This document shows positions 13,688-42,570 of a stretch of DNA of 64,000 nt, one piece after another. The notes under the pieces are model-generated. The model did no database searches and was not told the DNA's origin. It saw only the letters and a list, made by a program, of their open reading frames with translations. The number at the start of each line of letters is the position of its first letter. Position 1 is the stretch's first letter. Position numbers and translations under genes: made by a program. This stretch comes from Candidatus Aenigmatarchaeota archaeon (lineage in GTDB: Archaea; Aenigmatarchaeota; Aenigmatarchaeia; Aenigmatarchaeales; Aenigmatarchaeaceae): contig JAGGXH010000064.1 in assembly GCA_021163145.1 (NCBI GenBank), positions 2,197-66,196 of the forward strand, in the 5' to 3' direction.

Positions 13688-14695
13688 ATGAAGAAAATAT
13701 TAGATAATTATGTTAATGGTGCATATTGTCTTGAAACATTTACTGGAAATGAAAATGATGTATATCATATATTAAGGCAATATACTAACAAAGATTTAGT
13801 AATTGCAAGAATATTTGTATATGGAATATTAAGAAGATATGGTGCATCAGATGAAGGATTAAATGCACTTCTTCCTGTTTCACAGCATAATATTATAGGT
13901 CCAATTGCTGTTACATGGAAAAAAATATTGTTTGGAAAAAATATAATAATAACTAAGGGTGGTATAAGAAGAACAAAATATGAACCTGGTTCTACAACAG
14001 ATCCAGGAGATTATTTAGAAGTATTCACTATTATTGGTTCAAAAAAAGATGTTGATAAATTTGTTTCTGATTGGAATAATCTAGAGATATCATTTGGATA
14101 TGTGGTAGCTCCATGCACAGTACAAGTTGGGCCACCTAAAGATAAAAATTATTTGAGTTGTTCATTATACTTAGATTCAGAAAGTAAAATACCAGCAAAT
14201 AAAACAGATATAATTATTGTTGTACCAAAGAAACCCACAGAATGGTTTATTTTATCAAGCAAAAGATTAAATAAAATTAATGAACCAAAAATTGCTAAAC
14301 CAGAAATCATTAAAGAAGAAATAACTAAAGAAGAACAAGTTGAGAAAAAAACATTTTATGATAGAATTGAGCAAGAATTGGAATCAGATAAACCAAAATT
14401 AGGTAAAATGAAGCAAATATTATATGAAAAATTATTTAATATATTTACAAGTGCTGGAATAGATCAAAAAAATGCTATTAATTTGTGTAGAGAAATAACA
14501 CAAGAATTTACAATTGATCTTTTTTCAGAGCTTGTGCTTGCAATGAAAACCATTTCATCTAGAATATCTATTGATGGTAACATTGTATCAGAAGGAAGAG
14601 AAGTAACAACTAGTGATCTTATTAATTGGATAATAGAAAATCTTGATATAAATCCAAAAATTAAAGACATATTAGCAGAAATTAAAACTTATTAA
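13688..14695 (+). CDS. hypothetical protein
   Basis: No recognised motifs. Confidence 0.35.
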   Translation: MKKILDNYVNGAYCLETFTGNENDVYHILRQYTNKDLVIARIFVYGILRRYGASDEGLNALLPVSQHNIIGPIAVTWKKILFGKNIIITKGGIRRTKYEPGSTTDPGDYLEVFTIIGSKKDVDKFVSDWNNLEISFGYVVAPCTVQVGPPKDKNYLSCSLYLDSESKIPANKTDIIIVVPKKPTEWFILSSKRLNKINEPKIAKPEIIKEEITKEEQVEKKTFYDRIEQELESDKPKLGKMKQILYEKLFNIFTSAGIDQKNAINLCREITQEFTIDLFSELVLAMKTISSRISIDGNIVSEGREVTTSDLINWIIENLDINPKIKDILAEIKTY

Positions 14696-14724: not shown

Positions 14725-15513
14725 ATGCCTGATTTCATTCCTGTATTAACAGCTGCATTGATAATATTATTAGTATTGTTTATAGCAGTTGGTGGGTTAC
14801 CTGTATCAGAAGAAAAGGAAACTTCTCCTAGTAGTTTAACTTATTATTATCCTGATATATCTGGAACAATAATGCTTGGATCAAATTTTACTATATCTAA
14901 TTATGCAGATACAAAATTTTTAGCAAAATTAGATGGAAGAGTTTCTCAAGGTTTAATCTCAGGTGAAAAGAAAACCATATCATTTAAAGCACAAGATTAT
15001 CATAATTTTGATACAGGAAAAATAGTTGTAAATATAATAAACACAAATCTTTATGGAAATTTAATTGTAAAAATAAATGGAAAAACTGTTCTAAATGAAA
15101 GACCTAATATTGGTAAGCATGAATATTATTTTGATAATAATGTATTAAAAACAGAAAATACAATTACTGTATTTACAAGTGGTTCTGGATGGAGATTCTG
15201 GGCACCATCAATTTATGATTTAAATCTAAGTTTATATATGGAGACATTGGATATTAATAAAAAGTCATTTAAATTTGATCTAGATGGTAAGCCTGAAAGA
15301 GCAAGAATTGCTATTTTTGGAGACAGAATTAAAGGTGAAGGAGAAATAGTAATTAAGATTAATGATATAAAGGTGTACAAAGGTTATTTAAATGCTTATA
15401 AATATTTTGATCCAGATATTTTAAATATAGGTGAAAATTATGTTGATATATATTCTGAACAAAATTCAGAATATAATATATATTCAGCTAAAATAATATT
15501 GTGGGATGAATAA
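14725..15513 (+). CDS. membrane-anchored secreted protein (N-terminal TM helix)
   Basis: MPDFIPVLTAALIILLVLFIAVGG then a hydrophilic domain with NxS/T sequons. Confidence 0.4.
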   Translation: MPDFIPVLTAALIILLVLFIAVGGLPVSEEKETSPSSLTYYYPDISGTIMLGSNFTISNYADTKFLAKLDGRVSQGLISGEKKTISFKAQDYHNFDTGKIVVNIINTNLYGNLIVKINGKTVLNERPNIGKHEYYFDNNVLKTENTITVFTSGSGWRFWAPSIYDLNLSLYMETLDINKKSFKFDLDGKPERARIAIFGDRIKGEGEIVIKINDIKVYKGYLNAYKYFDPDILNIGENYVDIYSEQNSEYNIYSAKIILWDE

Positions 15514-15515
15514 TA

Positions 15516-17864
15516 ATGGCAGATGAAAGCAATGAAAAGAAAAAAGAAGGTTATTTAGAAAACGATGAGTTAGAGGAACCAAAAGAGAAAGTACCATCAA
15601 GATTAGCTGCTATTGGTAAACAAATCTGTCCAAAATGCGGAGCAATAAATCCTAGAAATAAACTTGTTTGTATAAAATGTGGTGCATTTCTTCCAAAAGC
15701 TTATAAAAAAGCTTCAGAAGCAAGATATGAATCTGCAGAAAAATGGAAATCTAGGTTTGGTGGTTTTGGAGAAAAAATAAAAGAATATATGCATATCATA
15801 ATCATACCAATCATACTTGGTATAATAGCTATATTATTTGGCTTTATATTTTTTGGTTCAGCATTATTTTTAATAGGATTTTATTTTGCTGCACCATATT
15901 CAAGTTATGCAAGAGGGCCATTAAAATTATTTATTTTATCTTTAATATATTTAGAATTTACAATTTTACATCCTCAAATATTAATAACTTTAATTGTTTT
16001 ATTTATAGGATATTTTTCAATGCCAACTGGTTATAGAGAATCAAGAAAATATAAAGCAGCAGAAGCATGGGGAAGAATATTTATAGGATATCTTGTGGCT
16101 ATTACCTTATATTCAGCATTGGGTGGAGCAACATCATTATATGTAATTCCATTATTAACATTATCACCAATTCAGGCGCCTTTATTTTTAATTTCATTTG
16201 CATTTTTCTTTGTATTGCCTGAAGTGAAGCCTGAAGGAGGAAGCATCAATATATATATGGGTCTTAAAGGAATTCCCCAAACTGTTGCTGGAAAAAGCAT
16301 TGGTGCAATAATATTTGTAACAATAATGTCAATAGCATTGTTATTTATATTAAATTCGTGGAAATTAGCAGAAACATCAACATTTACAATATCTATTTTC
16401 TGGATATTATCATTGATAATGGGTTTATTATCTGGTAGAGAAGGAAGACCATATACAGGAATAATAATGTTGGGAATTGCATTGCTCATGTTTTCAGTAC
16501 AATTTACAGGTGTTGTTGGAACAAATATATTTGGTCCATATTGGCCAACTGTTGAGCACTATACATCAGCAATAATAGAACCTATTAATAATGCAATTGA
16601 AAATGCTGCAAGTGGTGCAGAAGATGCATGGCTAATGATAACTTGTCCTCAATGTTATCAAGCTAAACAACAAAAAATGCAACAAATTGGAACAGGAAGA
16701 GTAAAACCAAGAGGAACTGTAAGATCAATAGAATTATCTAATTTTAATGCAATAAACTATGGAAGTGCAACACCAATAATAGATCCAGCACTTCCTTTAA
16801 TTGGAACAATAGAATTATCAAATAAAGGAGAATTTACAGGAAGAAACATTAAAGTTAAATTAGGTAAAGATGGTTCTGGTTATGTTTTATTAAAGGATCC
16901 TCAAAAAACAGGTGCAGCATATGATACATCTGTTTATTGCGATCCTAATAAAGGAAAAGAGTGTACATACACAGAACTTGAACATGATTTATGTACATTT
17001 ACATCATGTTTAGATTCAAATGAATATTATGACAATGTATTTGAAAAAAATAATCTAGTAACATCTTGTACATGGGATGAATCATTACCAGGAGATTTAA
17101 AAATGATGACATTTAAATGTGGTGATCCAAGCAAAGATTATTCTAAATGGACAGATCTTTCAATATTTGATCCAAATGCACCACCTGGATATGAAATATA
17201 TTTATATGGTCAAATGTTTGCAACAATTTTAATGGAGTATGAATTTGATTATGATGTAAATACATCTCTTGGAATAACTATAATGGATACACAATTGTTT
17301 ATAGATAAATTATCAAGAAAAGAAATAATACCAAAAGAAGAAACATCTGTATATACAGGTGGTCCAGTTCAATTAAATATATGGACACCAAAACAACCAT
17401 TAAGAGACATGGAAGAATCATATATAAGAATATCTGGAATTAATAAAGAAGATGGTGTTGTAGAAAAAGGAAGTGAACTTATTATAAAAATACCTGCAGA
17501 AAATATACCATTTGAATCTAGACCATTAATAGTAAGTAATACAGGTTTAGAAACTACAGAAAATAAATTGATTTATATCTGTAATGATAATACAGAAGTA
17601 GAAGTAAGTTCTATTCAAGAAGAAGAAAGTGCGTGTAGTAATAATGGTGGTGTAAAAGAATCATATTATGAAATAACAGGAACATTATCAAATGACTTAA
17701 ATAAAAATGACTTATTTACAATATTATTATCATTTAAATATTATTTGCCAGATCAAGTAGATGAAAAATCATTTATTCCTGTAGCAACATTTACTTATAC
17801 ATATAAAACAGATAAAAAAATTGAATTGCAAATAGCGAATGCACCAATAACAGGTGCTGGCTAA
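15516..17864 (+). CDS. large membrane protein: N-terminal cytoplasmic zinc ribbon, multi-TM core, Cys-rich extracellular C-domain
   Basis: CPKCGAINPRNKLVCIKCGA; several long hydrophobic segments; C-terminal ~450 aa with paired Cys and NxT sequons. Confidence 0.45.
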   Translation: MADESNEKKKEGYLENDELEEPKEKVPSRLAAIGKQICPKCGAINPRNKLVCIKCGAFLPKAYKKASEARYESAEKWKSRFGGFGEKIKEYMHIIIIPIILGIIAILFGFIFFGSALFLIGFYFAAPYSSYARGPLKLFILSLIYLEFTILHPQILITLIVLFIGYFSMPTGYRESRKYKAAEAWGRIFIGYLVAITLYSALGGATSLYVIPLLTLSPIQAPLFLISFAFFFVLPEVKPEGGSINIYMGLKGIPQTVAGKSIGAIIFVTIMSIALLFILNSWKLAETSTFTISIFWILSLIMGLLSGREGRPYTGIIMLGIALLMFSVQFTGVVGTNIFGPYWPTVEHYTSAIIEPINNAIENAASGAEDAWLMITCPQCYQAKQQKMQQIGTGRVKPRGTVRSIELSNFNAINYGSATPIIDPALPLIGTIELSNKGEFTGRNIKVKLGKDGSGYVLLKDPQKTGAAYDTSVYCDPNKGKECTYTELEHDLCTFTSCLDSNEYYDNVFEKNNLVTSCTWDESLPGDLKMMTFKCGDPSKDYSKWTDLSIFDPNAPPGYEIYLYGQMFATILMEYEFDYDVNTSLGITIMDTQLFIDKLSRKEIIPKEETSVYTGGPVQLNIWTPKQPLRDMEESYIRISGINKEDGVVEKGSELIIKIPAENIPFESRPLIVSNTGLETTENKLIYICNDNTEVEVSSIQEEESACSNNGGVKESYYEITGTLSNDLNKNDLFTILLSFKYYLPDQVDEKSFIPVATFTYTYKTDKKIELQIANAPITGAG

Positions 17865-17905
17865 CATTTATAATTAAATTATACTAAATAATAGTAGGTG
17901 ATGAT

Positions 17906-19741
17906 GTGAATATTAAATATTTGATTCCAATTTTTGCAATAGTTTCAATTGTTTTTGTTTCAGGTTGTATTGAAGGTTTTGATCTTTCTAGAATGGGTTT
18001 TGAAACATCAGGACCATTATCAGAACAATCTGCAGATATATTAGTAACAAAAAATATTCAGACAATCCCATCATCACCTATTTTAGCTGGAAATGAATTT
18101 TCAACAATATTTGAGCTTAAAAATAATGATAATATCAAAACAATTGAAAATGCACAAATAAAATTATTTGATTGGGGTGCATGTACACCATTAATAGATG
18201 AATTTGTTCCAAGTGGATGGGAAAAACCAGGTTCATATTATATTTACACATATGATAGTTTAGCACCAACTCAAGAAGAAAGAATTGAAATGGTATTTAA
18301 AGCACCTGACAATCAAAGAATAGGATATTTAGATGCTGATTGTAATATAAAATGGGAAACATCATATAATTTTAAAGCAATATCACAAGATGATTTTACA
18401 ATAATTTCAAAAACAAGATTAAAAGAATTGCAAAGAGCAGGTCAATCTTGGCAAGGAACAGATCAACCACAATATGTTGGTATAGGTCCAATTAAACTTT
18501 ATTTTGATTTTAAAACACCAATGCCTGTACAAAGTAAGGGCTCTATTCAATTTTCTGTAAAAGCAGTTGATAAAGGTTCTGGAACATTTGCAACTATACC
18601 AAAAGGTTTATTGCAAATAAGAGTTCCTGAAGACTGGTTAGAATATGATGAAAACGGGAACTTATTAAGTGGCTGTACAAGATTTGAACAAGCTTCTGGT
18701 GCTACTGGTGATGTTTTATTGCAAAAAACAGGAAGCTTTGTAATAATGCCAATGGCAGAATTGCAAACAGAAGAAGCTGGTGGAAAATATTGTGTATATT
18801 ATCCAATTGACACAAATCCTAATGCAGAAACAATTTTACAAAATGGTGAAACAAAGACATATTTATTAGAGACAAGTGATTTATCTAATATAAATAGTAT
18901 TACTCTTTCAGTAAAGAAACTTAGTCATAAAATCCGTAAATCTATTATTATTAAAATATTAGAAGATGGTAGAGAAATACATTACCAATCTTATATCTTG
19001 CCATTAGAAGGAGATGCAAATATTGAGTTAAATAAAAATATAGTATTAGTAAAAGGAAGAAAATATGAGCTATCAATTGAAAATCCTTATACACAATCTA
19101 AGACAGATGTTTATTTCTACAATGGAAAACAATATACACCATATTATAAATTATGTGGATCTGCAAGAGCAAAATATTTTGCTCAATCAGAGGCAAAAAC
19201 ATGGATAATTTCAGGAACAGAATATACTATAAATATGGTAGAGATATCATCTCCTAATGAAATAACATTTTATATAGATCCAAGTATAAATAATAAAAAT
19301 ATTATTACACTAAATCTTGGAGATGAAATTTCTATTGATGAAAGCAATAAATTAATATTTAGTGAATATGATAAGGCAACTGGCAAAGTTAAATTAGAAT
19401 TATTTGAAACAGGCACAGAAGTATCAGTAGTAGAATGCCAAACAAATGAAGATTGTGAAGAAGGATTTGAATGTAAAGATGGTCAATGTGTTGAAATATC
19501 AGCAACAACGCCAAGTGAAGTACCAGTTACAATAGAACAAGGATATGTAACATTTGTAAATTCTGTTCCAATAAATCTAATACAAGGTAAAACACCAGAA
19601 ATATTATGTAAATTTAAGGCACCTGATTTAGATGAGGAACAAATACCAGAAAAAACATATACTGTATTTGCAGAAATACCTGAGTATACATATAAAATAA
19701 CAAATTCAAAAACAGTTAGAATAAAACCAACAGTTGAATAA
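17906..19741 (+). CDS. secreted lipoprotein-like surface protein
   Basis: Signal peptide ending in lipobox-like VSGC (IPIFAIVSIVFVSGCIEG); Cys-knot-like CQTNEDCEEGFECKDGQC. Confidence 0.45.
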   Translation: MNIKYLIPIFAIVSIVFVSGCIEGFDLSRMGFETSGPLSEQSADILVTKNIQTIPSSPILAGNEFSTIFELKNNDNIKTIENAQIKLFDWGACTPLIDEFVPSGWEKPGSYYIYTYDSLAPTQEERIEMVFKAPDNQRIGYLDADCNIKWETSYNFKAISQDDFTIISKTRLKELQRAGQSWQGTDQPQYVGIGPIKLYFDFKTPMPVQSKGSIQFSVKAVDKGSGTFATIPKGLLQIRVPEDWLEYDENGNLLSGCTRFEQASGATGDVLLQKTGSFVIMPMAELQTEEAGGKYCVYYPIDTNPNAETILQNGETKTYLLETSDLSNINSITLSVKKLSHKIRKSIIIKILEDGREIHYQSYILPLEGDANIELNKNIVLVKGRKYELSIENPYTQSKTDVYFYNGKQYTPYYKLCGSARAKYFAQSEAKTWIISGTEYTINMVEISSPNEITFYIDPSINNKNIITLNLGDEISIDESNKLIFSEYDKATGKVKLELFETGTEVSVVECQTNEDCEEGFECKDGQCVEISATTPSEVPVTIEQGYVTFVNSVPINLIQGKTPEILCKFKAPDLDEEQIPEKTYTVFAEIPEYTYKITNSKTVRIKPTVE

Positions 19742-20597
19742 AATGAAAAAAATATTTTTTCCTTTATTATTGTCAATTGTAGTTATTTCAGGATGTATTA
19801 GTATTCCTGGTATTGGAAAGGCAAGTATAGGTGAGCAAGGAATATTTAATATCCAAAATCCTGATATTAGCATAGATATAAAACCATCTACAACTGAAGT
19901 TAAATCAGGAAGACAAATAAGTTTAAAATTTCATTTAACAAGTAATCAAAATGATTTGTTTAATATTTTACTTAATGTATATGATCAATGTATATTTACT
20001 GGTGATAATTTATATTCAATAGATAGTTTAAAGCATGGTAGATCAAAATCATGGATATGGAGATGGAAAGCTGGAAGCACAGAATTTCCTATGAATTGTA
20101 AAATAAAATATAGAGTATCATATATATCTAATTTCACATTATTTCATGATATAATATCAATGAAAGAATCTGAATATTATTCAAGACAAGAAAGAGGAAC
20201 TTTAAATGAAATAAAACTATTATCAAATAGTACAACCAATCCTTTAGACATTAAAATAAGATTCTCAGAACAACAACCATTTATTGAAGGAGAAGAATAT
20301 AATATGTATATTGATTATTCTTATTCAGGTAATGGATATATTGAGAAATTAGAAAATGTTACTATAAAAATTCCAGATTTCATAAATGATATAAAATGCA
20401 GTGGTTATGATTATGATAAAGAAACCCATACACTTAAATTAAATAGAGATCTTAATTTTTATAATAAAAAAGGTCCACAAACAACATGCACATTTACAAC
20501 ACAATTATCAGATCCATTGGAAATACAAAAAATTACATTAACAGCAAACTATATATATAAGTTTGACAATTCATTATTAATAAATGTAAAACCTTAA
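19734..20597 (+). CDS. secreted lipoprotein-like protein
   Basis: Signal peptide with ISGC motif (FFPLLLSIVVISGCISIPG). Confidence 0.45.
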   Translation: MNKMKKIFFPLLLSIVVISGCISIPGIGKASIGEQGIFNIQNPDISIDIKPSTTEVKSGRQISLKFHLTSNQNDLFNILLNVYDQCIFTGDNLYSIDSLKHGRSKSWIWRWKAGSTEFPMNCKIKYRVSYISNFTLFHDIISMKESEYYSRQERGTLNEIKLLSNSTTNPLDIKIRFSEQQPFIEGEEYNMYIDYSYSGNGYIEKLENVTIKIPDFINDIKCSGYDYDKETHTLKLNRDLNFYNKKGPQTTCTFTTQLSDPLEIQKITLTANYIYKFDNSLLINVKP

Positions 20598-20609
20598 ATG
20601 TGATTAAAA

Positions 20610-21521
20610 ATGAAAAAAATTATAATATTGATGTTATTGGTTTCAATTATATTTGTTTCAGGTTGTATTGGAGGAGGTAATAAACAAATACAACCACAAA
20701 AAGAAACAGGCCAAGGTTTAGAAATAGTTGATTTTTCATCATCTGTTTCAGATGTATATAGTGGAAAGCTAGTATCTATTCAAATGATGGTTGAAAACAA
20801 AGGTGATTATAAGATAAATAAAGATTATGGTTTAGTATATCTAATAACTGGATCTGATTGGGCATTAACTCAAGATGCAAATAAATCATATACTAAAGAC
20901 TTAAAACCAGCTGATCCTGTTTCAGGTGCACCACCAGGAAGTGCTATATTTAGATGGTCAGCAAAAGCACCTATTTTACCAGCAAGTCAAAAAAGAACAG
21001 ATACATTTATAGCAAGAGCATATTATGATTATCAAACAAAATCATTAGGAAATGTTTGGTTATATCCTGAAGTTGAAGCAACTGCAGCAAGAGATAAAAA
21101 AGAGACATTACCTTCTTCAGAATTTTCTTGTACAAAAGCACCAATAAGTTTAGATGTGAGTGTAGTACCTGATCCTGTTATAGTTGCAGAATCAGGAGAA
21201 TTGTTTTCACTTGTAATAGATATAAAAAACAATGGAAATGGAGTAGTATATAAAAATGGAACAATAACACCATATAATCATGAATTAACAGAGAATGATC
21301 TAAATAAAATTTCATTGCAAATAGAATTACCAAATGATATTATAATAACAGATCCTTCATGTTATCAAGATGTTGAATTAATTGGTGGAGAAGCTAATAT
21401 AATATGTGATTTAGAAGTTATTGACATGCCTACAACAAAGAAAACAATACCAATAACAGTCAAAGCTGATTATGGATATTATACAGATAAAACTCTTAAT
21501 ATAAAAATTCTTGGAAAATGA
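20610..21521 (+). CDS. secreted lipoprotein-like protein
   Basis: Signal peptide with VSGC motif (LMLLVSIIFVSGCIGGG). Confidence 0.45.
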   Translation: MKKIIILMLLVSIIFVSGCIGGGNKQIQPQKETGQGLEIVDFSSSVSDVYSGKLVSIQMMVENKGDYKINKDYGLVYLITGSDWALTQDANKSYTKDLKPADPVSGAPPGSAIFRWSAKAPILPASQKRTDTFIARAYYDYQTKSLGNVWLYPEVEATAARDKKETLPSSEFSCTKAPISLDVSVVPDPVIVAESGELFSLVIDIKNNGNGVVYKNGTITPYNHELTENDLNKISLQIELPNDIIITDPSCYQDVELIGGEANIICDLEVIDMPTTKKTIPITVKADYGYYTDKTLNIKILGK

Positions 21522-21522
21522 T

Positions 21523-22767
21523 TTACTTTATAAAAGCTGATAATCCTTTTTGCCTGTATTTATATATTTCCATATTTATTTTCTTTCCTGGTGGAACAGG
21601 TATCCCATAAACTCCTGCACCACCTGGAATATATTTAAATTTATCTTCTCTAAATAGCTTAATTAATTCAGCAGTTTTTTTATGAACTTTTTCAAGTTCA
21701 TTAATAGAAATATTTAATAGAACATTAGTTTCATTTTCAAATTTATTAACAAATTCTTTCCATAAATCTTGAACCCTATTTGACCAAACCTGTTTAATAT
21801 TTAAGGCAATAGCAATAATTTCTGATAATGGTATTATATGTATATATTTTGGTCTATGCTTAGGATGAATACCTTCTTTTGTGTCAGAAAGTTCCTTAAT
21901 TCTATAATCAACACCTTTTTTAATATAATTTTTACATTTTGGACATCTCCAGTTAAGTTTTTCGGCTTCTCTTGGACTAAAAAACATTAAGCAACCTCTG
22001 CATCTTGTTCGGTTATATTTGCCTTCAAGTGGATTAAGTCCAACATTTAATATACATTTTCTATTAGCTTCTCTTTTTAATGCCTTAGATATCTCATTAA
22101 AGCTAATTTCTTTTATCTTAAGTTTATTAAATTCTCTTCCCATCTTATTTGGCCAAGGACTATGAGCATCACTATTGCTAAGAAATGTTAATTTATGTAA
22201 TTCGCTAATCCTATCAGCCATATTTGTATCTGCTGATAATCCTAATTCTAGAAAATGAATTTTATTCCAGTATTTTCCATAACAATCTTTATATGAATCA
22301 AACTTAGAATATAATGAAAAATATGGAGTAAAAGCATGCGCGAATCCTATTAAACAATCTGACTCTATACACATTTCAGCTATTTGTTCAGCACTTAACC
22401 ATAATTTAGGTCTGCCATCTGTATCTAGATTTTTACAATGTTTTTTTATTTTTTCTCTTAGTTCATATACTTTTGATAAACTAGGAAATAATATAATATG
22501 ATGAACTCTGTTATTGTCTTCAACTTCAGTCTGTAAAATAAATTTTGTTCCATTTGGATGTTCAAAAATATCTTCAGTAACTGGTTTTAATTGCTGTTTT
22601 ATTAATTTGATCCATCTTTCATTTAATATATCAGCTGTTCCAACCAGTTGTAAACCTTTTAATAGAGCTTGTTCTCCGATTACTTTTGGGATCATCTTTT
22701 GACTAACTGCACCAGAATAAAGCCCATGTACATGGAGGTCGCAATTAACTTCTATAAAATCAGACAT
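21523..22767 (-). CDS. PHP-domain nuclease with C-terminal zinc ribbons, EndoQ-like
   Basis: N-terminal CDLHVHGLYSGAVS (PHP metal-binding His cluster); C-terminal CRGC...CPKC; size ~414 aa fits archaeal endonuclease Q; assignment from memory of family features. Confidence 0.4.
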   Translation of the reverse strand: MSDFIEVNCDLHVHGLYSGAVSQKMIPKVIGEQALLKGLQLVGTADILNERWIKLIKQQLKPVTEDIFEHPNGTKFILQTEVEDNNRVHHIILFPSLSKVYELREKIKKHCKNLDTDGRPKLWLSAEQIAEMCIESDCLIGFAHAFTPYFSLYSKFDSYKDCYGKYWNKIHFLELGLSADTNMADRISELHKLTFLSNSDAHSPWPNKMGREFNKLKIKEISFNEISKALKREANRKCILNVGLNPLEGKYNRTRCRGCLMFFSPREAEKLNWRCPKCKNYIKKGVDYRIKELSDTKEGIHPKHRPKYIHIIPLSEIIAIALNIKQVWSNRVQDLWKEFVNKFENETNVLLNISINELEKVHKKTAELIKLFREDKFKYIPGGAGVYGIPVPPGKKINMEIYKYRQKGLSAFIK

Positions 22768-24194
22768 TTTTTATACACCTTATACCAATTTTTATCTAAT
22801 AAATCAAATTTTCTTAGAGTTCTACAGAAATTTAGAAATTCCTTTCTAATCATAGGATAATAGTTATTCTGAAATTTTAAAATTATATTTCTTATTTCTC
22901 TACCTTCTTTTGTAAATATAATTTTATATTTTTTATTTGGTTTTGGACTTATTTGCTTTAATTTTATTAGCTCATATTTCTTGAAAACATTTATATATTT
23001 TTTTTGACCTCTTGCAATGTCAATACCCTTAATAATGTAACCGTCTTTGATTTTCATAAAAGCTTTTGTATACTGTAAATTTAAGAACAAATATATAAAT
23101 TTTAATCTATTAATCAGATTGAATTTATAAATATCATTGATTATAAGATTTATATTTTTGAACCAATCTGAATAAATTATCAATTTAGCTGTAGTAGGAT
23201 AATTACAGCATTTGATTTTTATATTTTCATTTTTAAATATTTTTTCTAATAATAAGAAATCTGAATTTAGCGTTTTTTTATTTAAGCTAATATGATGAGT
23301 TAAAAATGTTTTTGTCTGCTTTATAGGACTTCCGTCACCTGACAAAACACCTCTAATAAAATTATTATTGTCATATGGAATATTCACATCTAATAATTTT
23401 AAAAATAGTTCTTTTAGAATAATGCTACCAATATTCATTTCAAGTGTACCGCATGGTGATCTCGATTTTCTGCTTAAATGAAGCTTTGTGAATTTTTCTA
23501 TACCGGTTTGAGTTTTCCAAAATGCCTTTAATTGTTTTTCTTTTTTCTTTAGTTTGGGGTGACAATATATAGAAGCACTAATATCTTTTCTTCTTAGGTT
23601 TGATATGCTTTCTATAAAATCTAAAATAATATTAATTGTACTAGGGTCAGAATTTGTAAATGATGGTGCTTTCTTCCCACCTTCAGCGAAATATAAACCT
23701 AATGCAGCAGATGCCAATTCAGTAATTCTTATTTTTTTGTTAAAAATAATATCTTTTTTATAATATCCTCCAACTAATACTTTTAAATTGTTTAGTTGAT
23801 ATGCATAAATTGGAGTTAATCCTGTAGATTTCGGCATAATAGAAAGAATAGATATCTCGGAAGATTCTTTCTTATTTTCTCTAATTAAAGCCTCCTTTTC
23901 TGGAATTATATCTATAATCTTAATCTTCGGATTTTTAATCAACTTTTCCTTTTTGTATGAAATAATATAACTGTTTTCTGTTCTATGCATTTTTTTGAAT
24001 CTTATTGATTTATTATCTTTATTTGAAACTTCAACAACAGTTATTAAATTATTACAAGGTTTAGAAATAAAATTTTTAATGATACTCATTGGAATTGATG
24101 TAGTAAAATTAGATCTTATATGCGGTTTATATGTATTATTATTTATAATGCTATACTTGCTTCGATCCAAATTTAACTCACTAATATTTACCAC
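22752..24194 (-). CDS. LAGLIDADG homing endonuclease-like protein (free-standing)
   Basis: Motifs LGLYFAEGGK and FIRGVLSGDGSP; 3' end overlaps the start of the EndoQ-like gene by 16 nt. Confidence 0.55.
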   Translation of the reverse strand: MVNISELNLDRSKYSIINNNTYKPHIRSNFTTSIPMSIIKNFISKPCNNLITVVEVSNKDNKSIRFKKMHRTENSYIISYKKEKLIKNPKIKIIDIIPEKEALIRENKKESSEISILSIMPKSTGLTPIYAYQLNNLKVLVGGYYKKDIIFNKKIRITELASAALGLYFAEGGKKAPSFTNSDPSTINIILDFIESISNLRRKDISASIYCHPKLKKKEKQLKAFWKTQTGIEKFTKLHLSRKSRSPCGTLEMNIGSIILKELFLKLLDVNIPYDNNNFIRGVLSGDGSPIKQTKTFLTHHISLNKKTLNSDFLLLEKIFKNENIKIKCCNYPTTAKLIIYSDWFKNINLIINDIYKFNLINRLKFIYLFLNLQYTKAFMKIKDGYIIKGIDIARGQKKYINVFKKYELIKLKQISPKPNKKYKIIFTKEGREIRNIILKFQNNYYPMIRKEFLNFCRTLRKFDLLDKNWYKVYKKCLIL

Positions 24195-32930: not shown

Positions 32931-33356
32931 GTGATGGTAGTTATTTACAAAAATGCAAAAACTTATAAATCCAAACAAATAATTAATTTCATGGCAGGTA
33001 TGAAAATAATAATACCACTTGCTTTGATATTTTCAGTAGTTCTTATTAGTGGCTGTATTCAGAGTCAAGAGACACAACAAACTCAATTTAAAGTATTTGA
33101 TCAAGCATTAAACGAAGTTGGTACATTTAATTCTGATGTTACTATTCCTTTAGACGATAGTGAAGCTTGTGAAGTCGCTAAAGATGCTGCTCAAGTTTAT
33201 GGTCAAACATCTTTTAAGGACTGTGATGAAATACAAAGGATAGAAAATATCGAAATTAATGTAATAGATAGTACTTCTATTGATGATTATACCTATGCAG
33301 AGATAGCAAAAATTGATGAAAACTTGAAGACAGTTACATTCTATAGTTCGCCTTAA
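32931..33356 (+). CDS. small secreted lipoprotein-like protein
   Basis: Signal peptide with ISGC (LALIFSVVLISGCIQSQ). Confidence 0.4.
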   Translation: MMVVIYKNAKTYKSKQIINFMAGMKIIIPLALIFSVVLISGCIQSQETQQTQFKVFDQALNEVGTFNSDVTIPLDDSEACEVAKDAAQVYGQTSFKDCDEIQRIENIEINVIDSTSIDDYTYAEIAKIDENLKTVTFYSSP

Positions 33357-33550: not shown

Positions 33551-34828
33551 ATGAATACAAAGGGAAAATATATGCAACAAAAATCTGTAAAATTTGCTAA
33601 TGATTTTCTAAATAATTATAGTCATTATAAATTAGATTTTATTAATGATTTTTATGGCATAGAGCCTATTGATAAGGATTTAGAAGATTTCAAAAACTTT
33701 TTCAAAGTTATGCAGTTGAAGGCAAAAGCATTGTCGCTTAAAATTATATCTAAAAAAACTGGCCTATCCAAGTCTTCTATTGGAAAGTGGGTATTTAACA
33801 TAAGTATACCACCAATAATCCAACTTCTCAATTATCACAATAAACTAACAAAAAAATGTAATAAGAAATGGTTATCTATTAACTCTACAAGAGGCGGAAA
33901 ATTAATTGGACAATGGATAGCTGTTCCTGAAACAATTGATAATTATCAAACTATAGTGAATTTTCTAGAACAGATAAAACCATTACAAATTGCATATGAA
34001 AGAGCTAAAAAATTTAAGATAAACTTAGAAAAACAAAGAACATTACTATTTGCTTATTTACTAGGCATAATGTTGGGTGATGCGAGTAAACATGGTATTA
34101 AGAGAAGAAACAGAACTTCAAGGCGTGTACAATTGGCATTAACAGGAGCACATAAATCAAATGAGAGAATTGGTAACTTTACATCTCTATGTGCAAATTC
34201 AATAGGATTAAGAATGAATAGAATTAAAGATATGCCAGCTGGTAAAATGAACATTAAACCATTTTATAGATGGAGTTCACAGTCTTCTTTGTTAGTTCAA
34301 TGGATATTTGATGTTTGTATGGGGCTTAACAATGATCAGACAACAACATATGATAATGTTAAAATGGGCTGGCTACTAAAGATGCCTAAACAATTTAAAA
34401 TATGGTTTTTACAAGGTTTAGCAGACTCTGATGGTTATGTAGATTTCAATTCTTTTCAAGTTGGAATAATCTCTCAACCTAATACTGATTTAATTAAGAA
34501 GATTATTGAAAGTTTTGGAGTCAAATGTTCCATAAAAATTTTCAGAGAAAACAATTTAGAAGCAGTTATTGTTTCTGTTGAAGATGCATATAAATTGCAA
34601 TTATTTAACCCAATTGTAAAGAGTTACAGATATTTTGAAATGCAACGTCTTGCTACAGCAAAAAAATTATCTTGGCATATGTCAGAGGATTTAAATCTTA
34701 AAATCGTAGAATTATTGCAATCAGGATTAGATGGAACTAAATTAATTCGGAAACTCATACAAGCAGAAAATATAAGAGTAAGACCAAATGTTATAAGAAG
34801 AATAAAGAGGGTGAACAAAATTGAATAA
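33551..34828 (+). CDS. LAGLIDADG homing endonuclease-like protein with N-terminal HTH (free-standing)
   Basis: HTH-like LKIISKKTGLSKSSIGKWV; LAGLIDADG motifs LLGIMLGDASKHG and FLQGLADSDGYV; ends 17 nt before the Kae1 N-terminal remnant. Confidence 0.6.
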   Translation: MNTKGKYMQQKSVKFANDFLNNYSHYKLDFINDFYGIEPIDKDLEDFKNFFKVMQLKAKALSLKIISKKTGLSKSSIGKWVFNISIPPIIQLLNYHNKLTKKCNKKWLSINSTRGGKLIGQWIAVPETIDNYQTIVNFLEQIKPLQIAYERAKKFKINLEKQRTLLFAYLLGIMLGDASKHGIKRRNRTSRRVQLALTGAHKSNERIGNFTSLCANSIGLRMNRIKDMPAGKMNIKPFYRWSSQSSLLVQWIFDVCMGLNNDQTTTYDNVKMGWLLKMPKQFKIWFLQGLADSDGYVDFNSFQVGIISQPNTDLIKKIIESFGVKCSIKIFRENNLEAVIVSVEDAYKLQLFNPIVKSYRYFEMQRLATAKKLSWHMSEDLNLKIVELLQSGLDGTKLIRKLIQAENIRVRPNVIRRIKRVNKIE

Positions 34829-35829
34829 AAATAATATAAATAAAATTTGTCTTGGTATCGAGAGTACCGCACAATATATTTAGCGGAAATACTCTTGGTA
34901 TAGGAATAGTAAGAGGTGATAAAGTTCTAGCTAATATTAATAATATGTATAGACCTGAAGAAGGTGGGATACACCCAAGACAAGCAATGGATCATCATAT
35001 TAATGTAGCTAAAAAATTATTACAAGATGTTCTAGAAGAAGCAAAAATATCTATAAATGATATAGATTTAATTGCATTTTCAAAAGGTCCTGGATTACCA
35101 CAATGTCTAAGAGTAGGTTCAGTAATTGCAAGAACTTTATCATTAAAATTAAATAAGCCACTAATACCAGTTAATCATTGTATTGCACATATTGAAATTG
35201 GAAAACTCTTAACAGGATCAAGTGATCCAGTTACATTATATGTATCTGGTGGAAATACACAAATTATTGCTTATACAGAAAAGAGATATAGAGTATTTGG
35301 AGAAACACAAGATTTGCCAATTGGAAATGCTTTAGATATGTTTGCAAGACATGCTGGTTTTCCACACCCAGGAGCACCTGAAATAGAAAAATTAGCATTA
35401 AAGGGAAAATATATTAAAATGCCTTATGTTGTAAAAGGAATGGATGTTTCTTTTTCAGGAATAATAACACATGCAATAAAATTAATGAAAGACCATAAAT
35501 TAGAAAATATTTGTTATTCATTGCAAGAAACTTGTTTTGCAATGCTAACTGAAGTTACTGAAAGAGCAATGGCACATACTAATAAAAATGAAGTATTATT
35601 AACAGGTGGTGTTGCAGCTAATAAAAGATTAACTAGTATGCTAGATACTATGTGTAAGCAAAGAAATGCCAAATTATATGTTTGCCCAATGAAATATTCT
35701 GGTGATAATGGTGCTATGATTGCATGGACAGGTTTGCTACAATATAAAAATGGATATAAAACTACTTTGGATAATACTAAAATAGATAGATATTGGAGAA
35801 CAGAAGATGTTGAAATAAATTGGTTATAG
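34821..35829 (+). CDS. kae1: Kae1/TsaD tRNA t6A synthase, N-terminus disrupted by an apparent frameshift (listed ORF 34852..35829 lacks the GxEGTA motif, which lies upstream in another frame)
   Basis: Main ORF: HPRQAMDHH, DLIAFSKGPGL, PVNHCIAHIEIGK; upstream frame (34845..34883) encodes ICLGIESTAQYI* = Kae1 N-terminal motif, while the main frame resumes with NTLGIGIV; 16 nt (34872..34887) separate the two in-frame pieces. Confidence 0.8.
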
Positions 35830-40504: not shown

Positions 40505-41260
40505 TTAAGCTATTTTTCTAGGTTCTTCTCTTTTCAAAGCAGCGATGCTACAGACAAGCCTGCCCACTGGTTTACTTGCATATATATTGGGGCAAATTTT
40601 ATCCTTGTCCCAGGCTAGCATAATAAAAGCTATCTTCGTTGGAATTAATATAGCTGGTTCAACTTGTACAGTATTTAAATCATTATCAGTTAGTTTAAGA
40701 CCAATTTTTGATTGTTCAACTAGTTTCTGTAAAACCTCTGAATCAAATTGGTGATAATCATTCATTATAGCTCTATATCGATCATCAGAATATATTAATT
40801 CAACTGCTTCTTGTGTTTTAAGATGTCTTACAGGAAAATCTAAACCAAACTCATCAGGTATTTTCTGATAAACCAATTCTTGGATTATTCTATCTGTTCC
40901 TGCTATAAAGTTTTTATCGCGACCATCTCTAAAATCTTTAGGAACATCACCATTATGCATTAAAAATGCATAATCATTTTCTTCAAGATCTTTCTTTAAT
41001 CTATTTCCATCAATAAAAGTTAATACTTGATCAACTTCTTCTTCTAATCTTTTTCTTGATTTAGAAAAACTAGGATAAAAATTAACAAATCCATTATAAA
41101 CATCTTTATCTGAATTATAAACACCTGCTTCTTTCAAATGATCTAGTGCTTTATAATCATCAGTAGGGTGAACTTCTATAGCTTTCCCAGTAAACCAAAA
41201 TTTTCCATCTTTTATTTCTAATTTGGGTTCAGGCATTACTATTGTATATTTCTTGTTCAT
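40505..41260 (-). CDS. hypothetical protein (divergent from mre11)
   Basis: No confident motif match. Confidence 0.35.
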   Translation of the reverse strand: MNKKYTIVMPEPKLEIKDGKFWFTGKAIEVHPTDDYKALDHLKEAGVYNSDKDVYNGFVNFYPSFSKSRKRLEEEVDQVLTFIDGNRLKKDLEENDYAFLMHNGDVPKDFRDGRDKNFIAGTDRIIQELVYQKIPDEFGLDFPVRHLKTQEAVELIYSDDRYRAIMNDYHQFDSEVLQKLVEQSKIGLKLTDNDLNTVQVEPAILIPTKIAFIMLAWDKDKICPNIYASKPVGRLVCSIAALKREEPRKIA

Positions 41261-41361
41261 TAATTAACACCTTATTATTATTTACTACCGAAAAATATTT
41301 AAACACAGCTTTTTCACTAGAATGCGACAATCTTATTAATTTTAGCATTACATATCATTAT

Positions 41362-42570
41362 ATGCAAATTTCTATATTTTCAGATACTCATTGTGGATTT
41401 GGATATGGTACAGAGCGAGAAGAAGATTCATTTATTGCGTTAGAAGAAGCAATAGAAAAATCATTAGATTCAGATCTAATATTAATTGCTGGTGATGTTT
41501 TTGATACAAAAATACCTAAACCAGAAATATTTGCAAGAACAGCAAGGATATTGTCAAGAGCACAACATATTCCATCAAAAACAAGATTAATTGAAATAAT
41601 AAATAAAGATAAAAAACAAATATCTCCTCTTGCATTAAGAGGAATACCTATTGTATCTATACATGGTACACATGAAAGAAGATCTCCTTATAATATAAAC
41701 CCAATACAACAATTAGAACATACAGGATTATTAATTCATTTAGATAGATCTACTGTAGTATTTGAGATTGATAATCATAAAGTTGCTGTTCATGGAATGT
41801 CTGGTGTTCCAGAACAATATGCTAAAAAATATTTAGAAGAATGGAATCCTCAACCAATTAAAGATGCAATAAATATTTTAATGATTCATCAATCTATAAC
41901 ACCATATATTTATTCTCCTAAAGATCCTCCTTCATTACATATAGATGACTTGCCAGATGGATTTGATTTATATGTTTTAGGTCATATTCATTGGCATGAA
42001 TTAAGACCATTTAAATCTGGAAATTTGTTGTTAACAGGATCAACTATTTCAACTTCTTCACATAAAAGAGAAGCTGAGTCTGAAAAATACATATTCAAAT
42101 TAGACAAAGATCATTTGAGAAAAATTCCATTAGAAAAACAAAGAAAAATAATAATAGAGGAATTTAAAATAGAAGGTGATATAAAAACTAAGATTGATAA
42201 CTTTTTAGCTACACTAGCAAAACAGCCTATAAAACCAGTTGTTATTATTAAAATTACTGGTAAAGCTCCTAAGCATGTTACATTACCAAATCTAAATTAT
42301 CTTGTTGAAAAATACAAAGATAAGTTAATAGTAAATATAAAAAAGGATTATGAAATAGAAGGTTTTGAAGAACAAGTTGAAATGTTGAGAAAATTAAGAG
42401 AAAGAAAACTTTCTCCTAAAGAACATGGATTAGAAATATTAAAACAAAAATTAGCTGAAGTAGGTTTATCAATAAATATTGATGATATTTTTGATGTATT
42501 AGCTGAAGGAGATTCAGAAATGGCTTTCAATATATTAACTGGTAAGCAAAAAACTTTGGTGAATATATGA
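41362..42570 (+). CDS. mre11: Mre11 DNA double-strand-break repair nuclease (start revised from listed 41242 to internal ATG 41362)
   Basis: Phosphoesterase motifs MQISIFSDTHCG, ILIAGDVFD, HGTHE, GHIHWHE; the listed N-terminal 40 aa overlap the divergent gene and lack homology. Confidence 0.8.
   Translation: MQISIFSDTHCGFGYGTEREEDSFIALEEAIEKSLDSDLILIAGDVFDTKIPKPEIFARTARILSRAQHIPSKTRLIEIINKDKKQISPLALRGIPIVSIHGTHERRSPYNINPIQQLEHTGLLIHLDRSTVVFEIDNHKVAVHGMSGVPEQYAKKYLEEWNPQPIKDAINILMIHQSITPYIYSPKDPPSLHIDDLPDGFDLYVLGHIHWHELRPFKSGNLLLTGSTISTSSHKREAESEKYIFKLDKDHLRKIPLEKQRKIIIEEFKIEGDIKTKIDNFLATLAKQPIKPVVIIKITGKAPKHVTLPNLNYLVEKYKDKLIVNIKKDYEIEGFEEQVEMLRKLRERKLSPKEHGLEILKQKLAEVGLSINIDDIFDVLAEGDSEMAFNILTGKQKTLVNI

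Follow-up and report, generated by a model that had tools for sequence, protein, structure and literature searches.

The window considered here, a stretch of 64,000 nucleotides from the metagenome-assembled genome of a Candidatus Aenigmatarchaeota archaeon, a tiny organism of the symbiotic type, contains five consecutive genes for membrane or secreted proteins, which raises the question of what these proteins build at the cell surface and what it serves. We know of no cultured representative of the Aenigmarchaeota with a known host, nor of any account of how these archaea build their envelope or make contact with other cells. The results described below point to a vertically inherited, membrane- and lipid-anchored hetero-oligomeric surface complex, most likely for cell contact, a reading to which a probability of about 0.5 is given. 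The anatomy, namely a conserved surface module containing lipoproteins, is highly probable, and the contact or adhesion role, taken by itself, is put forward tentatively. The outcome is a phylum-wide syntenic operon and a candidate set of archaeal lipoproteins for the recently discovered AliA pathway, with peptidoglycan-hydrolase fusions in sister lineages providing a concrete hint at partners.

Gene Organization and Synteny

All five plus-strand open reading frames (ORFs) listed in the earlier note were recovered at the positions given there. They encode a 262-aa protein (14,725–15,513), a 782-aa polytopic protein (15,516–17,864), and three predicted lipoproteins: a 611-aa protein with a GTG start (17,906–19,741), a protein of 284 aa (19,743–20,597) or of 287 aa if read from a TTG at 19,734, and a 303-aa protein (20,610–21,521). 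In the JGI gene calls, the 287-aa ORF starts 9 nt further in, from the ATG at 19,743, and this start is the more likely one. Intergenic gaps of 2–41 nt and the presence of GGTGAT/GTGAT Shine-Dalgarno-like motifs are consistent with a single operon of five genes. A further plus-strand gene (13,688–14,695) for a predicted cytosolic 335-aa protein is the first after a divergent Pelota gene and is separated by 29 nt from the 262-aa gene downstream; it may be co-transcribed with the cluster. This protein has no transmembrane (TM) segment and no Pfam, NCBIfam, or PHROG match, and no homologue was detected in the other related loci examined. It is an uncertain member of the module.

A fixed gene order is shared by loci L006, L007, and L014–L019: a minus-strand Pelota gene, the 262-like gene, a variable cytosolic insert, the 782-like gene, the 611-like and 287-like genes, one or two 303-like genes, and a minus-strand TIGR00375 PHP gene. 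Of the 14 related loci examined, 11 have the 262-like gene upstream of the 782-like gene, either immediately adjacent or with inserted genes between the two. Instead of the 335-aa gene, the other loci carry variable cytosolic genes, which are located between the 262-like and 782-like genes. Synteny of the operon extends over about 10 Aenigmarchaeota genomes, and the description of the cluster as a lineage-specific cell-surface module is thus correct at the level of the phylum. Vertical inheritance within this DPANN phylum is the best reading of the distribution.

Lipoboxes and Predicted Lipidation

The predicted signal peptides are MNIKYLIPIFAIVSIVFVSGC for the 611-aa protein, M(NKM)KKIFFPLLLSIVVISGC for the 287-aa protein, and MKKIIILMLLVSIIFVSGC for the 303-aa protein, each followed by I. 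Their basic n-regions (MNIK, M(NKM)KK, and MKK, respectively) lead into hydrophobic runs with Kyte-Doolittle means of 2.5–3.5 that end in FVSGC, VISGC, and FVSGC, giving the lipobox motifs VSGC, ISGC, and VSGC. The absence of a twin-arginine motif indicates that all three are of the Sec type. A scan of the 163 ORFs of at least 50 aa in the window for hydrophobic runs that lead into [LVIFMA][ASTVILG][GAS]C returned only the three cluster proteins, a 141-aa ORF (32,931–33,356, plus strand), and one antisense shadow ORF. The three cluster signal peptides do end in [FI][VI]SGC, in agreement with the VSGC/ISGC noticed previously, and the 141-aa ORF is the only other real gene of the 64 kb to do likewise. 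In a simulation over about 65 genes, a run of three adjacent genes out of the four with a lipobox has P about 0.006; the clustering is attributable to tandem paralogy.

Conservation gives the lipobox reading strong support. The Cys is retained in 51 of 51 lipoprotein homologues, with a canonical lipobox in 39 of them, and G18 and C19 are invariant across the 21 sequences of the 303-aa family, four of which also match Pfam LPAM_1, used as a proxy for a lipoprotein predictor (best E 0.0036). The tether of the three proteins would presumably be an archaeol thioether that AliA adds to the lipobox Cys. To our knowledge, lipidation has not been demonstrated for any DPANN protein. In DPANN archaea, proteins with a lipobox and AliA, the enzyme responsible for lipidation, are reported to be prevalent (PMC12462473).

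Alternatively, the N-terminal hydrophobic segments could be plain uncleaved signal anchors, in which the SGC carries no lipid. Some 287-family orthologues have a non-canonical [TI]S[LM]C with the Cys retained, and a tblastn search of the 64-kb window found no AliA gene (arCOG02177/PF01889) there. Nevertheless, related genomes do encode AliA, and the Cys falls exactly at the end of the h-region in every homologue even though the mature parts are only 30–40% identical; together with the canonical lipoboxes, the invariant G-C pair, and the LPAM_1 matches, this makes uncleaved anchors improbable.

Architecture of the Anchored Proteins

The 782-aa protein begins with a cytoplasmic zinc ribbon (residues 36–57, with Cys at positions 38, 41, 52, and 55), for which Pfam matches are weak and below threshold (best E 2.4e-4). 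It continues with a membrane core of about nine hydrophobic TM helices (residues 90–334), a helical stalk (331–392), and an ectodomain of tandem Ig/CARDB-like beta-sandwiches (395–773), and it contains 10 Cys beyond residue 340. The AF2 model from which the fold is predicted is of high confidence (pLDDT 88.1, pTM 0.78). Two motifs are conserved in the family, G-R-P-x-x-G (R311, P312, and G315) and F-G-x-[WY]-W-P (F339, G340, W343, and P344). No PDB relative was found by sequence; by fold, the search returned only generic beta-sandwiches, and the membrane core had no PDB match. The family comprises 268 representative clusters, 83 of them at E ≤ 1e-30, and all members with a source name are assigned to Aenigmarchaeota or to "Nanoarchaeota archaeon", which is a loose label. 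It is a previously undescribed polytopic family; the model is confident, and no structure of a relative has been solved. The window protein carries no enzymatic or recognised adhesin domain, and its polytopic core shows neither an STT3/GT-C domain match nor fold similarity to GT-C glycosyltransferases or AglB-type oligosaccharyltransferases.

The 262-aa protein is anchored by a single N-terminal hydrophobic helix (residues 4–22), into which its conserved N-terminus, MPDFIPV, leads directly. Its extracellular part is all-beta and consists of two repeats of a jelly-roll, CBM-like module. An alignment of eight orthologues starts with M-P/D-D/E-F-I/M-P and displays the repeated module as "L.I.INGxxVY...G.N.v.f", with three repeats in the orthologues of L008 and L009; three of the eight members weakly match the CBM-like PF14683 (best E 2.7e-4).

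Paralogy of the Lipoproteins and the Polytopic Ectodomain

Profile comparisons with hhalign connect the lipoprotein families to one another (611 versus 287 family, probability 97.7%; 287 versus 303 family, 98.4%, E 6e-15) and to the 782 ectodomain (611 family, 93.9%; 287 family, 97.0%; 303 family, 97.3%, E 2.5e-11, covering nearly the entire ectodomain). These sequence profiles show that the three lipoproteins are paralogous, both among themselves and with the 782-aa ectodomain. The 303-aa protein, which has 15 homologues at 34–100% identity, is composed of two beta-sandwiches, the first of them CARDB-like: CARDB PF07705 matches 9 of the 21 family sequences (best E 4.5e-6), and homologue P0011 has a precomputed PF07705 match, but the Pfam scan returned none for the window proteins themselves. 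The statement in the earlier note that none of the proteins has recognisable homology therefore holds only for direct Pfam/NCBIfam scans of the window proteins; it fails for the 782-aa protein, given the size of its family, and for the lipoproteins, given their CARDB-like kinship with its ectodomain. About 285 aa of the 611-aa protein (roughly residues 265–555) form a lineage-specific insertion that contains a small Cys-knot and is missing from its orthologues of 300–376 aa; variable insertions of this kind are typical of exposed surface proteins.

Secreted Proteins Elsewhere in the Window

Two other proteins had been proposed to belong to the module. The 141-aa ORF, a predicted small lipoprotein (LISGC, followed by I) that probably starts at the ATG at 32,991 or 33,000, resembles the cluster lipoproteins at the level of the signal peptide only, has no Pfam match, and is surrounded by genes for S24e, Rpo7-like, and Kae1 proteins. 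The ORF running from 61,932 onward does encode a large secreted, sequon-rich protein, having a signal peptide and 18 N-glycosylation sequons where 9.2 are expected (P 0.0015). Both are unlinked to the cluster and lie among housekeeping genes, and nothing ties them to it.

Distant Members of the Polytopic Family

The distant members of the 782-aa family, which represent a subfamily other than that of the window, lack the lipoprotein genes. Five of them (P0119, P0129, P0158, P0162, and P0123) carry at the distal C-terminal end either an SLT domain or a Glucosaminidase together with an Amidase_3 domain, and in the SLT domain of P0129 the catalytic E-S, GLMQ, and AYNAG motifs are readable. The window protein, which ends after its last beta-sandwich at residue 782, has no Pfam match to any of these three domains. 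In all three loci with enough flanking sequence (L008, L011, and L020), the long-type member is followed by an AliA gene (PF01889) at a distance of 0–3.5 kb. T2SSE/T2SSF genes are present in L011 on the opposite strand, beyond AliA.

Proposed Role and Alternatives

The five genes are proposed to form one operon for a membrane-tethered extracellular assembly specific to Aenigmarchaeota. The 782-aa protein would serve as the base, with its zinc ribbon in the cytoplasm, its helices in the membrane, and its stalk and sandwiches outside. The three downstream proteins, paralogues of the ectodomain, are read as ancient copies that have lost the membrane core and are exported through their Sec-type signal peptides, and the 262-aa protein would contribute an N-terminally anchored pair of CBM-like jelly-rolls as a sugar-binding-like partner. 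Paralogy and the fixed gene order suggest that the five proteins form a complex. Since each paralogue persists phylum-wide as a separate orthologue in an unchanged gene order, this would most likely be a hetero-oligomer in which every paralogue takes a distinct position around the base. The most likely role would be cell-surface contact or adhesion, given that in sister lineages the same base protein, without lipoprotein partners, bears distal muralytic enzymes; these fusions add one indirect argument for interaction with a host or another cell.

A bolder and rather doubtful extension sees the operon as a cell-cell contact apparatus of Aenigmarchaeota with a conserved base and exchangeable distal equipment, consisting of lipid-anchored paralogues and a glycan-binding partner in one branch and muralytic enzymes in the other. 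If true, a DPANN phylum without a cultured host would have its first candidate device for attachment or penetration, the lineages that bear hydrolases would be expected to have bacteria as partners or prey, and the module would serve as a marker and give experimental access to DPANN-host biology.

The same proteins could instead form a housekeeping scaffold in the pseudo-periplasmic space beneath the S-layer, acting as a support, spacer, or biogenesis platform with no part in cell contact. The cluster is inherited vertically at a single locus, always between the Pelota and TIGR00375 PHP genes, in genomes of 27–56% GC, and L006 and L010 have a gene for an S_layer_C protein within a few kb of it. 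Sequons are depleted in the five-gene cluster (8 observed, 17 expected), most clearly in the 611-aa protein (0 against 4.7, P 0.0025), and likewise in L017 and L019, whereas the protein at 61,932 is enriched. The inheritance beside housekeeping genes, the single-copy syntenic position, and the sequon depletion are at least as compatible with a scaffold as with a device for host contact. However, the depletion is not significant in the clusters of L006 and L014, the variable insertion of the 611-aa protein and the CBM-like partner suggest exposure to the outside, and distal peptidoglycan hydrolases would make little sense internally in sister lineages without murein. An internal scaffold is possible, if somewhat unlikely; even then, it would be the first surface complex built on lipoproteins to be described from DPANN archaea.

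Another explanation regards the nine-helix core as a channel or permease of an uptake or export machine, in which the lipoproteins capture or pass a substrate such as host lipids or metabolites. DPANN archaea rely on imported metabolites, the core is polytopic with the conserved R311-P312-G315 and FGxWWP motifs, and two distant homologues are labelled "MFS transporter" by NCBI. With respect to known transporter superfamilies (MFS and ABC permeases), neither a Pfam/NCBIfam domain nor a structural match of the TM core was found, and a transport function appears unlikely. It is very improbable that the 782-aa family is a lipoprotein maturation or sorting factor, such as the archaeal signal peptidase for lipoproteins, which is still unknown (PMC12462473), with the downstream lipoproteins as its clients: the proximity of AliA to long-type members and the three lipoprotein genes that follow the 782-like gene in short-type loci would fit, but the three AliA-linked loci share one arrangement and thus reflect a single evolutionary event, the family is limited to one phylum while lipoproteins and AliA occur in both Euryarchaeota and DPANN archaea (PMC12462473), the invariant TM residues include no evident conserved catalytic set such as Asp-Asp or Ser-His, and paralogy of the lipoproteins with the protein's own ectodomain argues for co-assembly rather than an enzyme-substrate relationship.

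Comparison with Known Systems

For the preferred reading of an anchored surface complex, a close parallel is found in the archaeal Sec-type lipoproteins that receive their lipid from AliA/AliB (Hong et al. 2025, PMC12462473), which share the basic n-region, the h-region, the [LVI][ASTVI][GAS]C motif, and the conserved Cys; AliA genes also occur in Aenigmarchaeota genomes near long-type homologues. Haloarchaeal lipoproteomes consist mainly of solute-binding proteins, whereas the cluster lipoproteins are Ig/CARDB-like paralogues of a polytopic protein's ectodomain. Resemblance to CARDB/NEW3-type domains (PF07705 and PF10633) lies in the first sandwich of the 303 family, and the CARDB signature N-x-G also appears in the 782 ectodomain (N436 and G438). 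The window proteins nevertheless remain below Pfam thresholds, and a two-sandwich unit with a conserved C-terminal Y-x-Y strand, fused to a nine-TM core, is undescribed.

Tandem beta-sandwich stalk adhesins, including the integrin alpha thigh/calf, MSCRAMM FnBPA, Gram-positive pilins, and transglutaminase beta-barrels, exhibit a generic likeness of fold (TM-score about 0.1, 5–12% identity), but the window proteins have no sortase or isopeptide motif and no membrane domain in common with them. The distant family members are comparable to the muralytic modules of conjugation systems (VirB1/PrgK/CwlT-type) in placing SLT, or glucosaminidase and amidase, at the distal end of an anchored stalk; the window protein differs in having no hydrolase domain, and no VirB4/VirD4-type ATPase or other secretion component occurs inside any cluster examined. 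Archaeal peptidoglycan hydrolases that target bacteria (PMC12352652) are a further point of comparison for the distant members. Finally, TcaA-like proteins display the same succession of N-terminal cytoplasmic zinc ribbon, membrane segment, and extracellular domain, although the 782-aa protein scores only 12.8 bits (E 0.038) against the TcaA NCBIfam model, whose cut-off is 550, and spans the membrane with about nine helices where TcaA uses one.

Gene content and layout of the operon

The earlier note described five consecutive plus-strand genes at 14725-21521, and these were recovered at exactly the same positions; they are referred to here by the length of their products. In the 262-aa protein (14725-15513, +), residues 4-22 form a single hydrophobic helix. 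The 782-aa protein (15516-17864, +) begins with a CxxC...CxxC arrangement (C38, C41, C52 and C55) that gives zinc-ribbon Pfam matches below threshold. Its residues 90-334 contain about nine hydrophobic helices, and its 440 C-terminal residues include ten cysteines. At their N-termini, the 611-aa (17906-19741, +), 287-aa (19734-20597, +) and 303-aa (20610-21521, +) proteins have a basic n-region, then a hydrophobic stretch leading into FVSGC|I, VISGC|I and FVSGC|I, respectively. In public gene calls, the 287-aa gene starts from the ATG at 19743 and encodes 284 aa. The cluster looks like a native operon, with intergenic gaps of 2-41 nt containing GGTGAT/GTGAT motifs and a GC content of 0.26-0.29 that is the same as that of its surroundings.

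A second open reading frame of 782 codons, at 42567-44915, was considered as a relative of the membrane protein and rejected: it is Rad50, encoded beside Mre11 (pair at 41242-44915, +), its product of exactly 782 aa shows no similarity, and the equal length is coincidental.

Homologues and conservation of gene order

Direct scans of the five proteins against Pfam, NCBIfam and PHROG gave nothing useful, and to that extent the earlier description of the cluster as lacking recognisable homology stands; beyond such scans it does not, as homologues exist for the 782-, 303- and 262-aa proteins. A Candidatus Aenigmarchaeota metagenome-assembled genome encodes an identical copy of the 782-aa protein, annotated as hypothetical, and the same contig occurs in several metagenomes. 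A k-mer-limited search yielded only one relative of this protein, and an exhaustive HMMER search was needed to reveal the family, comprising 268 representative clusters at E <= 1e-3, 83 of them at E <= 1e-30. Taxonomic range was read from the minority of matches that bear source names; all of these are Aenigmarchaeota, except two labelled "Nanoarchaeota archaeon". For the 303-aa protein 15 homologues were found, with identities down to 34%, and for the 262-aa protein three.

Contigs bearing homologues were then mapped with HMMs built from the cluster families; the search for related loci with an 8-sequence alignment and narrow patterns reached just six genomes. Eight loci (L006, L007 and L014-L019) share the order Pelota (-), 262-like gene, one or more variable cytosolic genes, 782-like gene, lipoprotein genes (611-like, 287-like and one or two 303-like) and a TIGR00375/MJ0043 PHP gene (-). 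Since this order recurs in genomes ranging from 27% to 56% GC, the module is ancient and has been passed on vertically in the phylum. The earlier term "lineage-specific" thus holds at the level of the phylum but not below it.

The stretch between the 262-like and 782-like genes is filled by different cytosolic genes in other lineages, and the 335-aa gene located between Pelota and the 262-aa gene in the window has no counterpart in the other loci examined. Unrelated, highly charged cytosolic proteins are encoded between the pair at L009:2255-3262, L006:1494-4519, L007:2482-5280 and L017:8229-9473, one of them bearing an HExxH motif (AHERMH). At L018:6839-9871, toxin-antitoxin-type genes (NTase/HEPN pairs, HicB-like) are inserted, from which it follows that the pair tolerates separation.

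At the PHP end of the cluster in the window, a 480-aa open reading frame (22752-24194, -) shares 16 nt with the beginning of the TIGR00375/MJ0043-like PHP gene. It has no Pfam match, and LAGLIDADG-like motifs (GLYFAEGGK, GVLSGDGS) can be recognised in it by eye. The orthologous PHP gene encodes 814-830 aa in L006 and L017, and the L006 copy, the one of the two included in the scan, gives a weak intein-splicing Pfam match. Together, these features suggest that the 480-aa frame may encode a homing endonuclease that has been freed or has degenerated. A 425-aa frame elsewhere (33551-34828, +), immediately upstream of the Kae1/TsaD gene (34852-35829), gives weak homing-endonuclease and LAGLIDADG_3 matches.

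Paralogy and structure of the encoded proteins

Profile-profile comparison of the lipoprotein families and the 782 ectodomain linked 287 to 303 (probability 98.4%, E 6e-15, 272 columns), 611 to 287 (probability 97.7%) and 303, with its signal peptide excluded, to residues 393-782 of the 782-aa protein (probability 97.3%, E 2.5e-11, 248 columns). By these profiles, the three lipoproteins share homology with each other and with the 782 ectodomain. A single two-sandwich extracellular unit is thus present four times in the operon, once joined to a polytopic core and three times in a form predicted to be lipid-anchored. Each copy is kept as a separate orthologue, and the order of the copies is fixed. 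The CARDB-like character of the first sandwich shows in PF07705 matches (best E 4.5e-6) for 9 of the 21 proteins in the 303-aa family. The 611-aa protein is enlarged by an insertion of about 285 aa (residues ~265-555) that is lineage-specific and absent from its orthologues of 300-376 aa; within it lies a small Cys-rich knot (CQTNEDCEEGFECKDGQCV) that gives a weak DUF7107 match.

The 262-aa protein is unrelated to the two-sandwich proteins. Its family has a conserved MPDFIPV start leading directly into the transmembrane helix and a jelly-roll-like module present in two repeats, or three in some orthologues; weak matches to the CBM-like PF14683 occur in 3 of 8 members.

Structure prediction had been proposed in the earlier note, and an AF2 model of the 782-aa protein, based on an 82-sequence alignment, was confident (pLDDT 88.1, pTM 0.78). 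It consists of zinc-ribbon beta-hairpins (36-57), helices (61-329), two long helices (331-392) that extend beyond the membrane, and an ectodomain of beta-sandwiches (395-773). The basic loops 174-187 and 238-260, the cytoplasmic zinc ribbon and the positive-inside rule point to an N-in/C-out topology with an odd number of transmembrane helices, which would place the invariant R311-P312-x-x-G315 loop on the cytoplasmic side. On the stalk, the conserved extracellular motif D-A-W-L-M-x-T-C-P-x-C-Y (residues 369-381) includes a CPxC pair in the close subfamily, replaced by T-N-P-V-G-Y in distant members; the pair could be a redox site, a metal site or a structural disulfide.

Predicted lipidation

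Across the window, a search of all 163 open reading frames of 50 aa or more for a hydrophobic run followed by a lipobox again identified the three SGC signal peptides of the cluster, and beyond them only a 141-aa frame at 32931 and one antisense shadow frame. That three of the four signature genes are consecutive among about 65 genes has a probability of ~0.006. Homologues of the three lipoprotein families have the cysteine with which the h-region ends in 51/51 cases and the canonical [LVI][ASTVI][GAS]C in 39/51; [TI]S[LM]C is frequent in the 287-aa subfamily. In the 303-aa family, G18 and C19 are invariant across 21 sequences with mature parts just 30-59% identical. According to Hong et al. 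(PMC12462473), both predicted lipoproteins and AliA (arCOG02177, now PF01889), the enzyme that lipidates them, are prevalent in DPANN. AliA was not found in the 64-kb window and was found in related Aenigmarchaeota loci. Given the conserved lipobox cysteine, this prevalence and the AliA genes of related loci, lipidation of the cluster lipoproteins is a well-supported prediction.

Long-type loci, hydrolase domains and AliA

Among the longest and most divergent members of the 782 family, five carry a C-terminal SLT lytic transglycosylase domain (four members) or Glucosaminidase plus Amidase_3 (one), placed after the ectodomain in each of the five, one of which is a named Aenigmarchaeota. In the distant homologue P0129, the SLT catalytic E-S, GLMQ and AYNAG motifs are intact. 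To our knowledge, the source organism itself has no murein. The muralytic domains form the distal tip of a stalked protein anchored in the membrane, which argues that this end of the assembly reaches the wall of another cell.

Long-type loci, with or without hydrolases (L008, L009, L011 and L020), keep Pelota and the 262-like gene and are devoid of the lipoprotein genes. AliA (PF01889) lies 0-3.5 kb downstream of the 782 homologue in all three with enough flanking sequence (L008:17553-18407, L011:13915-14754 and L020:15486-16334, all on the minus strand); as the three loci have one arrangement in common, they amount to a single evolutionary association. A single-sequence AliA model, applied to the short-type loci L006, L007 and L012-L017, returned no match. 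In L011, AliA is followed by a pilus-assembly cluster (two T2SSF genes and T2SSE).

Function of the assembly

It can be regarded as established that a conserved Aenigmarchaeota operon encodes paralogous Ig/CARDB-like units with a CBM-like partner, which would form a membrane- and lipid-anchored extracellular assembly. The 141-aa lipoprotein and a large secreted protein (61932-64000, +, extending past the window end), earlier counted as parts of the same module, are unlinked to it and lie among housekeeping genes. An SPase-I-type signal peptide is present in the large protein, along with weak matches to MG2, CARDB and HYDIN-like Ig; the protein may belong to the S-layer or be another major protein of the surface.

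The likeliest mechanism would involve a hetero-oligomer assembled around the polytopic 782-aa base and acting in surface contact or adhesion. Its main rival, a housekeeping envelope scaffold, is favoured by the strict vertical inheritance of the module and by depletion of N-glycosylation sequons in the cluster ectodomains (8 observed vs 17 expected; 0 vs 4.7 in the 611-aa protein, P 0.0025), whereas the secreted protein at 61932 is enriched (18 vs 9.2). The orthologous clusters of L017 and L019 are likewise depleted, but those of L006 and L014 are not. A role of the cluster in transport and one of the 782 family in lipoprotein maturation are weak alternatives; as the main reading, a family that is the missing archaeal lipoprotein signal peptidase was rejected, since the family is restricted to one phylum and has paralogues of its own ectodomain as partners.

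Comparison with known systems

Profile searches of the PDB with the 262, 782 and 303 families returned only noise, a search of the BFVD viral fold library with the 782 model gave generic DUF11/Ig matches only, and no recognisable relative of the membrane core emerged from Foldseek, the viral fold library or the PDB profile search. The top Foldseek match, rhodopsin-arrestin (TM-score 0.12), is an artefact of a chimera joining seven transmembrane helices to tandem sandwiches. Among characterised archaeal systems, the lipoprotein anchor of Haloferax is a thioether-linked archaeol (Hong et al., PMC12462473), and archaeal peptidoglycan hydrolases directed at bacteria have been described (PMC12352652). 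In overall fold, the 782 model is matched by Foldseek to integrin legs, arrestins and MSCRAMMs, at a TM-score of about 0.1.
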